Source of the DNA: Sedimentisphaerales bacterium
GTDB lineage: Bacteria > Planctomycetota > Phycisphaerae > Sedimentisphaerales > Anaerobacaceae
Direction of reading: 5' to 3'
DNA length: 64,000 bases
Assembly (NCBI GenBank): GCA_963708075.1
Contig: OY970194.1
Location: forward strand, 3,168,001-3,232,000
A model generated the notes under the pieces. That model saw only the letters and a list, made by a program, of their open reading frames with translations, was not told the DNA's origin and did not search any database. Below are positions 46,597-50,884 of this stretch, in pieces. The stretch's first letter is position 1; every line of letters begins with the position of its first letter. A program made the translations under genes and the position numbers.

Positions 46597-46640
46597 CCCG
46601 GGTGGCATCAGCAAGCTGCCGCTTGTCCCTGCCACCCGGG
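46597..46640. repeat. GGGTGGCA-ended palindrome
   Basis: CCCGGGTGGCA...TGCCACCCGGG. Confidence 0.7.
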
Positions 46641-46694: not shown

Positions 46695-47648
46695 CTATGG
46701 CAGCAGATCGTACAGGAAGCTGTCGCCGATCACCGGGCTATCCTCAACACAGTTGGCCTTGGCGTAGTCGAATGCCTCCTCGATAGTCACCAGGGGAGGA
46801 TTGGACAGTACACCAATGTCGGCGTAGTCGTGTACATTCGCTACGCCTGTCGACATACCCTCGGCAAGGTAATAACTGAACTCTCCCTGGCCCCCGCCCC
46901 AGTCGGGACCTTCGTAGGCATCAGCCCTCTCGCCCGCGGCCATGAGGAGCACCCGGCCCGGTGCCAGAAGATCGTTCATTCCACCCGCCATGCACATGTC
47001 GAAGATGAAGATGACCCGGCTGGTTGGGAAATTGCGGAAGGCGACTTCTAACTCGCCGTCCCAGATCGGTTCGTAATCAGCGAACGGATCGGTATTAGAG
47101 GGGAGCGGATTCACGACGATAGCCTCATCCACCTTCTCCCTGTCGCCGTCCATGGCGTCGCCGCTCATGCCATGGCCGCTGTAAAAGAAGACCACTTCAT
47201 CGGCCGAGCTTGCCAGTGCCCGTATCCTGTCAATCGCGTCCAGGACACTCTCGCGGGTCGCATTCTTATCTATCAGCGTGGTGATGTCGTCGAAGCCGTA
47301 AATGCTGCTCAGAACCTCTGTCGTGACAACGGCATCGTCGTCGGCATAGTCGAGGTCATTCAGCGCCCCGGGATAGTCGGAAATACCGATGACGATGGCG
47401 TACCTGGTGCCGCCACATTGTGCTCCGAGGACTCCTGTTGCGGCTCCCGTCCTTCTCTGTCCGCTGCGGGCAGCGCGCGCCTGCGCCCCCTGCAACGTGA
47501 TTTTCGGTACGAGGACAATGTCGGTCGCAGGTACAGGCTTGTGTGGATTGGGTTTGTCCGGCTTGGCGCCGAGAGTCCCGATACCGAGCAGTAGCAAAGT
47601 GGCCGATGTGACTGTGACTGCGAGGAAAAATCCCTTCGAGGTGCCCAT
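46695..47648 (-). CDS. Secreted caspase-family (C14, metacaspase/orthocaspase) peptidase
   Basis: YAIVIGISDY, L.YADDDA, FFYSGHG (His), FDMCMAGG (Cys); signal peptide. Confidence 0.88.
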   Translation of the reverse strand: MGTSKGFFLAVTVTSATLLLLGIGTLGAKPDKPNPHKPVPATDIVLVPKITLQGAQARAARSGQRRTGAATGVLGAQCGGTRYAIVIGISDYPGALNDLDYADDDAVVTTEVLSSIYGFDDITTLIDKNATRESVLDAIDRIRALASSADEVVFFYSGHGMSGDAMDGDREKVDEAIVVNPLPSNTDPFADYEPIWDGELEVAFRNFPTSRVIFIFDMCMAGGMNDLLAPGRVLLMAAGERADAYEGPDWGGGQGEFSYYLAEGMSTGVANVHDYADIGVLSNPPLVTIEEAFDYAKANCVEDSPVIGDSFLYDLLP

Positions 47649-47799
47649 CACGCTTCTCCCTTCCGGCCCGAGAGCCTCAATGCCTGCGGGCCAATAAACC
47701 ATCCTTGTTGATGCGATGAAGCTGTCAGTAAGTATCGGTCGCGGGCGCCGAGTTTCTTTAGCAGCGCATAGAAGAGCGCATCCATGCGAGCGGCTGGGT

Positions 47800-48292: not shown

Positions 48293-48497
48293 TTGACAAG
48301 GACCCCCCAAAAATGCTATATTAACTCTTATCAATACTGAAGCACAAAGGAGAGTGACGGCTGGATGCCGAGCAATCGATGGTGCTTCAGGGGGGGGCCC
48401 CAATTTCCTACATGGAAGCCACTGAAAGTTCCCACTTCTGCCAAGGCAGAGTGGCATTAGAAGTAACTAAAAAACACACTTGGTTAGGAGGTATGTG
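48293..48497 (+). promoter_or_regulatory. Promoter plus structured 5' leader, copy 1
   Basis: TTGACA-N18-TATATT; stems conserved with copy 2. Confidence 0.65.
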
Positions 48498-49031
48498 ATG
48501 AGAAGCTCTAGAAGTCTAGTCATGTTGGTCGCCGCGTTGGCTGTCCTTGCAGTGCCTGTTTGCAGTACTTTTGCAGGTTCCGGCAAACCCAGAGCCATCG
48601 TTGACGCAGGTCTCTTCGGTCTGCCGACGGATGTCTTCCCTGGCACAAAGTACGTAAACAGCCACACCGCTGAAGCCGAGCTCATGGGCGCCGAGGGCTC
48701 CTTCACAGTGGGCCAGCCAATGAGTATGGACTGGGTGGGCATCTGGGTCGCCGTTGGCGGGCTGATCCCCAACGCTACGTACAGAGCCTACCTCGATCAA
48801 ACCGGCATCACTCCCGGCGACCTTAGCACAGCCGGCCCCTGCCAGTTGAAGGGCACCTTCACCACGGACGCATCGGGAAACGGCGTGTTCTACTATGAAG
48901 TACTGGATCTGACCCCGGGCACCTATGCGTGGTCCCTGTACATCAACAAGATCGCTTATGACAGGAACGGCAAGCTGGTGGTGAATCACACGGTCCTGAT
49001 CAGCGAGAACCTGGACTTCACGATCGAGTAA
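48498..49031 (+). CDS. Secreted hypothetical protein, paralog 1
   Basis: RBS AGGAGG, signal peptide, clearly homologous to 49860-50393. Confidence 0.85.
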   Translation: MRSSRSLVMLVAALAVLAVPVCSTFAGSGKPRAIVDAGLFGLPTDVFPGTKYVNSHTAEAELMGAEGSFTVGQPMSMDWVGIWVAVGGLIPNATYRAYLDQTGITPGDLSTAGPCQLKGTFTTDASGNGVFYYEVLDLTPGTYAWSLYINKIAYDRNGKLVVNHTVLISENLDFTIE

Positions 49032-49079
49032 CAGAACTTGGACCATATGCCGTAATAAGTAACGGCAGTTGTATAAAAC

Positions 49080-49116
49080 AAGGGGCTGCACAGCAAATGT
49101 GCAGCCCCTTCTTTTT
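49080..49116 (+). terminator. Intrinsic terminator
   Basis: AAGGGGCTGCACA-gcaaa-TGTGCAGCCCCTT followed by CTTTTT. Confidence 0.85.
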
Positions 49117-49657
49117 GCCCACGGATGCCACGGATCCGTTTCGCTTCTTGGTATAGGCCTACGGGACCGGTACTGCGCCAAGTCATTTGCTGCGATCTCT
49201 GACGAGGTCTCCGAACGGGCTGATCGCGTCATATTTGTCCTGCGAAGTCGTATGCATGATGCCGACCGCCTGTGGCGTCCCGTTTATCGCATTGAGCCAG
49301 CCGCGAGGATTCTTCAGCGTGCCACCATCGTAGCAGGCACCGACCAGGGTCCTGAACCCGCGTTCATCACGCTTCTCCCTTCCGGCCCGAGGGCATCAAT
49401 GCCCAAGGACCTATAAAAACCATCATTCTGCAGAAGCGATGAAGCTGTTGGGTAGTTCAGCGGCGGGTGGCCAATTTCTTTAACCAGCGAGGCGAAGATT
49501 TCTTCATGCATTAAACTCAAAGGCGACTTGGCGAATTCCCCACTCCCACGCGCGGGCACGTGGATAAGCCTTGCCGGAGACACCTTTCGCGGGCGATTCG
49601 AGGCACTTCCCCAAATGCCCCCACCACTGCATGTCCCCCAGTTTTCCCATTTTTCCC

Positions 49658-49859
49658 TTGACAAGGCCCCCTGTAGAATTGCTATACTGACGCTGAGGCA
49701 CTGAGGCACGAAGGAGACTGGCGGCTTGATGCCGATCAATCGATGGTGCTTCAGGGGGGCCCATAGTTACCTGCATGGAAGCCACTGAAAGTACCCGCTC
49801 CTGCGAAGGCAGGGTGGCAATAGAAGTAATTGAAATACTCTTTGGTTAGGAGGTATGTG
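49658..49859 (+). promoter_or_regulatory. Promoter plus structured 5' leader, copy 2
   Basis: TTGACA...TGcTATACT; same stems as copy 1. Confidence 0.65.
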
Positions 49860-50393: not shown

Positions 50394-50445
50394 GCGACAA
50401 GACCTGGTTCATACGCCGTGACAAGCAACGGCGGTTGCATAAAAC

Positions 50446-50484
50446 AAGGGGCTGCACCCTCGCTGTGCAGCCCCTTCTCTTTTT
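50446..50484 (+). terminator. Intrinsic terminator
   Basis: AAGGGGCTGCAC-N7-GTGCAGCCCCTT followed by CTCTTTTT. Confidence 0.85.
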
Positions 50485-50626
50485 CCTCTATGTCCGGCAC
50501 GACAGCCAACTCTACGCCATTGTCCCGACCTGGCTCGCCATGAGCCTATGAGCCGCATTCCTTAACGTCCTGCTTATAGTCCATACCGACTACACATGAG
50601 TTCCTCTTATCGCACCATCAAGCTTT

Positions 50627-50707
50627 GGGTGGCATCGGCAATCGCCGGCCTGCCAATGGTTTGTCCCTTCGCCATCGGCAAAGCCTGGGGCCTTGCCGCC
50701 GCCACCC
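50627..50707. repeat. GGGTGGCA-ended composite palindromic element
   Basis: GGGTGGCATCGGCAA...CCATCGGCAA...TTGCCGCCGCCACCC. Confidence 0.7.
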
Positions 50708-50884
50708 GGCGACACGAGATTCTCAATCGCAACCCGCCTTACGGCATCACTCAGGACGGGCGGGCGTCATTTCAGGCTTGACGCGGCGCCGCGAGTCAAT
50801 AGAGTGGATAGCAAAGGGGCAGGCCGATGCGTCTGCCGGTTTTGACAGGGGCGAGGATGGCCCGTTCGCCAGATTGAGAAGGAG

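Follow-up and report, generated by a model that had tools for sequence, protein, structure and literature searches.

A structured, lineage-restricted 5' leader with a probable kink-turn precedes a tandemly duplicated secreted-protein gene in a Sedimentisphaerales bacterium

The window analysed here is a 64,000-nt stretch of contig OY970194.1 from the genome (7.5 Mb, 60% G+C) of a Sedimentisphaerales bacterium, and it carries a tandem duplication with a spacing of about 1362 nt (Table 1). The duplicated unit is complete, running from a sigma-70 promoter through a leader of about 165–170 nt in each copy and a gene for a 177-aa protein to a 3' hairpin and an intrinsic terminator, and the two leaders are therefore paralogues rather than independent uses of one RNA. 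A divergent caspase-like gene with a Peptidase_C14 match lies at 46695–47702; pieces like its remnant between the two copies also precede the gene in two related metagenomic loci (L012 and L014), and in a third (L013) an intact caspase-like gene is found in the same arrangement. A small hairpin between stop codon and terminator (49047–49068 and 50413–50434 in the window) is kept in 8/8 loci. Positions 50620–50710 hold a REP- or MITE-like repeat, about 85 nt long with inverted ends, that is interspersed through the genome (more than 100 blastn matches); a shorter related piece lies near 46600.

Table 1. Features of the duplicated unit, in window coordinates
Feature	Position	Strand	Description or basis
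Sigma-70-type promoter, copy 1	48293..48322	+	TTGACA, 18 nt spacer, extended TATATT; 11/12 consensus matches, TG present
Hairpin P1, copy 1	48337..48390	+	8–9 bp basal stem, bulge, 2-bp C-helix, kink-turn-like loop, upper stem, small apical hairpin
Kink-turn-like module, copy 1	48345..48381	+	AAG bulge 48347–48349, G.A 48350/48379, A.G 48351/48378, 3b:3n G-C 48352/48377
Candidate 4-bp pseudoknot	48363–48366 with 48403–48406	+	apical loop with pyrimidine stretch 3' of P1; not significant
Variable G-run and pyrimidine linker	48391..48410	+	12 nt of the segment deleted in L015
Invariant CAUGGA(A/U)G box, copy 1	48411..48418	+	8/8 leaders; fits the CANGGANG CsrA-site pattern
Hairpin 2, copy 1	48432..48454	+	sequence, paired stem
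A/G-rich conserved segment (48459–48466) and Shine-Dalgarno AGGAGG (48486–48491)	48459..48491	+	sequence
Gene copy 1, 177 aa	48498..49031	+	no Pfam family; N-terminus like a signal peptide; fold predicted as a beta-sandwich similar to Cu/Zn-SOD or Ig domains
3' UTR hairpin and intrinsic terminator, copy 1	49047..49116	+	terminator stem 49080–49110
Duplicated 5'-end remnant of the divergent caspase-like gene	49365..49482	-	between copies, marks duplication boundary
Promoter, copy 2	49658..49688	+	TTGACA, 19 nt spacer, extended TATACT
Hairpin P1 with kink-turn-like module, copy 2	49701..49754	+	sequence and fold
CAUGGAAG box, copy 2	49774..49781	+	sequence
Hairpin 2, copy 2	49795..49817	+	sequence, paired stem
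A/G-rich segment and Shine-Dalgarno, copy 2	49822..49853	+	sequence
Gene copy 2, 177 aa	49860..50393	+	58% identical to copy 1
Intrinsic terminator, copy 2	50446..50482	+	predicted

Transcription of copy 1 probably starts near 48329, about 7 nt past the -10 box. The promoter scan was limited to spacers of 16–18 nt and so did not list the copy 2 promoter, which has a spacer of 19 nt; a -35/-10 pair is found upstream of all eight leaders compared here, these being the two window copies (c1 and c2) and those of six metagenomic loci (L010 to L015). One metatranscriptome contig (48422–48677) begins in the 3' half of the leader and ends in the coding sequence, although such a contig carries no information on start, strand or level and may reflect DNA carry-over; nor does the missing cover of P1 in the two RNA runs count as evidence.

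The 177-aa protein has no Pfam match. AlphaFold models it, with modest confidence (pLDDT 60), as a beta-sandwich; the structures closest to this model are Cu/Zn superoxide dismutases (Z 9.4; 120 residues at rmsd 4.8 Å), and Ig-like domains come a close second (Z about 7–8). Since the family alignment contains no invariant histidine, superoxide dismutase activity is unlikely, and nothing about the gene points to a ligand. The protein family extends beyond the leader: it counts 64 representatives (E up to 0.001), 7 of 275 genomes of the taxonomic family contain matches, and an atlas search returned unnamed clusters only. Elsewhere in the same genome a long open reading frame (L003 4524–6704; G000 C1 about 2072529–2074700, minus strand) ends in a third paralogue of the coding domain with a similar 3' end; a related 3' hairpin and terminator lie downstream of this C-terminal beta-sandwich domain, and like fusions of the domain are present in P0014 and others.

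The leader in front of both gene copies is a structured RNA that is new to description. Much of its architecture had been recognised in an earlier sequence-only reading, and the elements named there are present. The strands of the first hairpin, P1 (48337–48345/48382–48390 and 49701–49709/49746–49754), differ by an A-U to G-U change and enclose AAGGAGA (at 48347 and 49711) and a small hairpin that differs between copies in its loop alone (48358–48370 and 49722–49734). Beyond P1 lies a G-run of 8 G in one copy and 6 G in the other, and further on a hairpin 2 whose stem shows one U-A to C-G change plus one wobble between copies. The block between these, which had been called invariant, is identical over 19 nt in both copies (48411–48429 and 49774–49792) but varies in other loci, and CAUGGA(A/U)G is the sole part of it kept in all eight leaders. 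An upstream open reading frame starting at the invariant AUG was considered and rejected, having no Shine-Dalgarno sequence, no conserved frame and a stop after 4–5 codons in L011 and L013; read by eye, the frame is open for 19–28 codons in five leaders.

The earlier statement that no known riboswitch matches is borne out by covariance-model searches, which gave no Rfam 15 match in the window at the gathering threshold. At E values up to 10 only unrelated sub-threshold matches appeared, both on 2.4 kb and on each leader alone, and the leaders among 10 related loci had no Rfam match. T-box leaders are defined by a UGGN-ACC antiterminator bulge and an amino-acid-related gene; here the corresponding position reads UGGC-AAU or UGGC-AUU, and the gene encodes a secreted beta-sandwich protein, not an amino-acid-related one. 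Nor did the leader turn up in the literature on RNA motifs of this group at the level of listings, abstracts and passages of PMC2864571, although supplementary motif catalogues of comparative-genomics papers could hold it. As matters stand, this is a narrow, gene-specific leader that is new to Rfam 15.

A wider distribution across the Planctomycetota, for which a covariance-model search had been proposed, did not emerge: the leader was found solely before close homologues of this one gene. The metagenome collection was searched through the protein only, and this protein-guided scan returned eight loci, six of them with a full-length gene; promoter, leader and terminator are present in 6/6 of the latter, and the remaining two loci (L016 and L017) lack the leader and match the protein only weakly and in part. 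For the nucleotide searches two models were built, one of the whole leader (8 sequences) and one of P1 only (7 sequences). In the host genome blastn, nhmmer and both models recovered the two known copies plus one chance match at E 3.3, and the third, fused paralogue has no leader. A DNA search of 40 relatives found the leader in 0/40, a model search found no further copy in any of 23 genus genomes, and the P1 model gave 0/150 family and 0/150 phylum genomes. Two full-model matches in 150 order genomes (E about 0.008) were rejected, as both lie inside long open reading frames and about one such match is expected by chance. Pattern scans gave 1 match in genome contigs and 20 and 2 in viral contigs, none of which scores as the motif, and a protein search with the translated leader, covering near lengths only, had P0017 as its sole match. 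The DNA upstream of four distant homologues of the gene (L047–L050) holds unrelated leaders; two of these, at L047 1124–1500 and L050 about 1070–1395, are about 300–350 nt long, lie behind TTGACA promoters and have no Rfam matches, and L050 also carries, beside the distant homologue, group II intron domains at 2015–2301 (RF02001 and RF01998, above gathering) with a reverse-transcriptase fragment. As far as these searches reach, the RNA occurs in a single clade of one gene family only.

Between the two window copies the leader is indeed more conserved than the coding sequence, as the sequence-only reading had suggested: 84% of positions are identical (138/165), compared with 310/453 (68%) in the mature coding sequence (Fisher p 3e-5) and 33/54 (61%) at fourfold sites (Fisher p 3e-4), with 57/78 in the signal peptide region. 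Because the duplication took in the whole unit, conservation extends to the promoter (83%) and to the 3' UTR with its terminator (79%). In most pairs among c2, L011, L012, L014 and L015 the leader is 84–89% identical and fourfold sites 69–77%, the exception being the near-identical pair c2/L012, with 89% in the leader and 97% in fourfold sites and coding sequence. These comparisons bear on the possibility that the pattern is mostly one of shared ancestry and homogenisation, in which paralogues recombine, the mature protein evolves fast and the stems are incidental. Such an account draws on P0017, a database protein in which a translated copy-1-type leader is joined to a copy-2-type coding start with a frameshifted tail, and which may be a natural or an assembly chimera. 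It draws as well on L013, whose coding sequence groups with copy 1 (support 0.999) while its leader is only 64–68% identical to all others, so that the copy 1 leader is closer to the copy 2 leader (86%) than to that of L013. Against it stand the excess of leader over fourfold-site identity in most pairs and the lack of any sharp edge to the identity tract inside the unit.

How far the stems themselves are selected is less clear-cut. To call the leader covarying, as had been done, is too strong: with the structure first proposed, two-sided changes occur in 2/22 pairs among the 8 sequences, a level that 187/500 shuffles reach, and this failure to beat shuffles again suits homogenisation. When stems were defined on the two window copies and new pair types were scored in the other loci, 7/10 of those in five loci (without L013) stay paired against 0.30 expected (p about 0.01), four of the ten coming from one L015 insertion; L013 keeps 3/13 varied pairs and breaks 10/13, and pooled with it the count falls to 10/23 (p 0.11), a further point for homogenisation. 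The L013 leader does keep three short boxes (10/11, 7/8 and 13/13), and their retention while pairs break points to sequence-specific recognition and weighs against the reading favoured below, the clustering of L013 conservation into boxes being borderline (p 0.02–0.09). Variant pairs are of G-U type in 10 cases and of A-C type in 2, as expected for an RNA of the + strand, in a test that is partly circular because that strand was the one used to draw the stems. Folding z-scores run from -4.4 to +0.2/+0.3, lying below -2.4 in 2/8 leaders and between -0.6 and +0.3 in 3/8. The structure is thus probably real and selected, but not strictly so. The bias towards keeping pairs, like the in-register kink-turn described below, needs selection, and we regard homogenisation as unlikely to be the main explanation; part of the apparent conservation may nonetheless derive from paralogue recombination (or, for P0017, from an assembly chimera), given that chimera, the conflict between leader and coding-sequence trees over L013 and the 97% coding as against 89% leader identity of c2/L012.

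The bias of variant pairs to G-U on the sense strand also argues against the idea that the inverted repeats and boxes are DNA-level operators, that is, transcription-factor sites downstream of the promoter. P1 can be read as a 9-bp inverted repeat, and ATCGAT is palindromic, but the spacer between the repeats is 36 nt and P1 begins anywhere from 4 to 20 nt after the -10 box, and such operators are highly improbable. The structured and constrained leader that the sequence-only reading proposed is in outline supported, and a good sigma-70 promoter lies upstream of it.

Within P1, the internal loop reads in order a 2-bp C-helix, an AAG bulge, G.A, A.G, G-C and A-U, which is the order of a standard kink-turn as part of PMC8191799 defines it, namely a 3-nt bulge followed by tandem G.A and A.G pairs between helices. 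The canonical sequence is present in 6/8 leaders, with C at position 1b in L012 and L013. Because a loose kink-turn pattern occurs anywhere in 53–59% of shuffles, only the in-register test is informative; with P1 fixed and its 36-nt interior shuffled, an in-register kink-turn arises in 0.3% of cases, for a motif that was chosen post hoc. With the kink-turn register, L012 shows a compensatory C-G to U-A change at the -2 pair and an A-U/G-U pair is added, which brings the alignment to 4 two-sided cells (reached by 1/500 shuffles) and 3 two-sided pairs (reached by 21/500), counts to be read in the knowledge that this is the fourth full-leader structure tried on one alignment and that sequence relatedness inflates them. 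It is therefore probable, judging from sequence, that P1 carries a kink-turn. By the rules of PMC8191799, G-C at 3b:3n predicts that ions by themselves do not induce folding. Passages of PMC4316175 describe the usual purpose of a kink-turn as making a tertiary contact or binding a protein. No L7Ae-family gene (PF01248) was found in the host genome, which is 92.8% complete, and these points weigh against the reading favoured below. The locus thus adds a bacterial mRNA leader with a kink-turn whose Watson-Crick 3b:3n pair would make its folding depend on a tertiary contact or a protein, and the host is one where the L7Ae family was not detected, which is a small puzzle.

One use of such a module would be in a riboswitch. 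The sequence-only reading noted that GCCAC and GTGGC could pair as an alternative to hairpin 2, in a mutually exclusive fashion as in a switch. The pairing is possible in sequence, but the proposed switch finds no support: in only 3/8 leaders (c1, L010 and L011) is the alternative conformer close in energy to hairpin 2 (within about 1 kcal/mol), and in the other five it is 2.9–9.7 kcal/mol worse. Forcing either conformer shifts the cost of opening the Shine-Dalgarno sequence by at most 1.7 kcal/mol and with mixed sign (equilibrium model), and a three-way version of the conformer was rejected, with covariation no better and no general competitiveness. The leaders of both window copies lack the T-run of a terminator, having no stretch of four or more T, and tests of T-runs and Shine-Dalgarno opening found no conserved expression platform coupled to the alternative fold.

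A different arrangement, an orphan riboswitch, can be drawn around the kink-turn, which would bend P1 over and bring its apical loop into pairing with the pyrimidine stretch immediately 3' of the hairpin; a ligand near the invariant CAAUCGA or CAUGGA boxes would then control the Shine-Dalgarno sequence, with which the P1 3' strand could pair instead. The in-register kink-turn and the secreted product of the downstream gene speak for this, as does a possible 7-bp helix between the P1 3' strand and the Shine-Dalgarno region, each pair of which is kept in at least 7/8 leaders. The loop/pyrimidine helix tops the 6167 possible 4-bp helices (pair types GU/UA/GC and UA/UG/CG), but its maximum-score P is 0.31–0.42 over all helices and 0.02–0.15 when restricted to the loop, its paired fraction is reached by 71/500 shuffles, it is rich in G-U, and its partner strand is deleted in L015. 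The C at 1b in L012 and L013, the lack of an Rfam match, the restriction to one gene clade and the lack of a conserved expression platform also count against a riboswitch, and P1 appears too stable to serve as an obvious switching helix. The pseudoknot stays a lead because the kink-turns of the SAM-I and c-di-GMP-II riboswitches mediate such long-range loop contacts, according to passages of PMC4316175. An orphan riboswitch of this kind is nevertheless improbable, and we would give the same low weight to its fullest form, a rare class new to description in which a k-turned P1, a loop pseudoknot and a CAAUCGA/CAUGGA ligand site control translation of a protein with an SOD-like fold but without the SOD histidine ligands. 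Should the leader prove to depend on a ligand, it would represent a new, rare class of riboswitches and give a hint to the function of an uncharacterised secreted-protein family.

The invariant box invites another reading, in which CsrA binds CANGGANG about 84–89 nt upstream of the start codon together with a second GGA, in the P1 loops or the Shine-Dalgarno sequence, and represses translation or changes stability. The genome encodes one intact CsrA (89.9 bits), CANGGANG is found in 8/8 leaders, the divergent L013 included, and passages of PMC4894983 give it as the high-affinity pattern. Such a site nonetheless occurs by chance in 8–11% of shuffled leaders, GGA and ANGGA counts are not enriched (p 0.23–0.93), the box is predicted to be partly paired (0.7–3.4 kcal/mol to open), and the Shine-Dalgarno sequence reads UAGGA rather than ANGGA. 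Genome-wide, CANGGANG shows no intergenic enrichment (728 observed against 750 expected with a crude gene set), no FliW gene was found in the genome, and a scan for CsrB-like sRNAs gave many GGA-rich stretches but no clear candidate. Regulation by CsrA is therefore improbable as well.

We favour, tentatively and with a little less than even confidence, a constrained, lineage-restricted structured 5' leader that belongs to one narrow clade of secreted-protein genes and tunes mRNA stability or translation. Such a leader is likelier than a riboswitch because it is found only before close relatives of one gene and shows no conserved switching mechanism. It was copied along with the gene in the tandem duplication; on transcription, P1 would fold co-transcriptionally into a kinked 5' hairpin, and hairpin 2 would leave the purine-rich segment and the Shine-Dalgarno sequence largely free. 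The leader would set how long the mRNA lasts and how strongly it is translated, whether constitutively or by way of a bound protein, with no small molecule driving a switch between two folds. It withstands a 12-nt deletion in L015 and strong divergence in L013, where genes and promoters are intact. Stabilisation of mRNA by 5' structure is established, according to passages of PMC3997798, but simple protection of the 5' end is weakened as an explanation, since about 5–14 unpaired nt would precede P1 in 7/8 leaders, the distance from the -10 box to the P1 start being 4 nt in L012 and 11–20 nt in the other seven. In copy 2 an 8-nt tandem duplication lies at the P1 start (window 49693–49709), and P1 is 12 nt from the -10 box there compared with 4 nt in the orthologous L012.

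Several known systems share features with this leader. Four orphan kink-turn motifs from bacterial leaders likewise have a 3-nt bulge and then tandem G.A and A.G pairs between two helices; unlike those motifs, which have C:C or A:G at 3b:3n, the present leader has a Watson-Crick G-C there, and it also has A-U or G-U at -1b:-1n, C at 1b in 2/8 leaders and a host with no L7Ae-family gene found. The c-di-GMP-II riboswitch (Rfam RF01786 and relatives) resembles it in having a hairpin kink-turn, an apical loop with possible long-range pairing and a position upstream of a secreted-protein gene; it differs in that no covariance-model match was obtained even at E up to 10 on single leaders. As passages of PMC4316175 describe it, the c-di-GMP-II C-helix splays into the ligand pocket, whereas here the C-helix would stack on P1 across a single bulged purine, and in place of the c-di-GMP-II long-range pairing of the NC-helix loop there is a candidate 4-bp helix that is not significant. 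With CsrA/RsmA leaders of the Campylobacter jejuni flaA type, as far as passages of PMC4894983 describe them, it has in common a CANGGANG box in the 5' UTR and a host csrA, and differs in having one site far from the Shine-Dalgarno sequence, no predicted exposed hexaloop, no GGA enrichment and no ANGGA over the Shine-Dalgarno sequence. The 5' stabiliser leaders (Escherichia coli ompA and the Bacillus subtilis/Bacillus thuringiensis ermC and cryIIIA types), taken as they appear in passages of PMC3997798, show no sequence relation to it, and in contrast to them its P1 hairpin is not strictly 5'-terminal in 7/8 leaders and has a kink-turn-like loop; like them, however, it combines a long structured 5' UTR, a hairpin near the 5' end, a strong Shine-Dalgarno sequence and a monocistronic mRNA.
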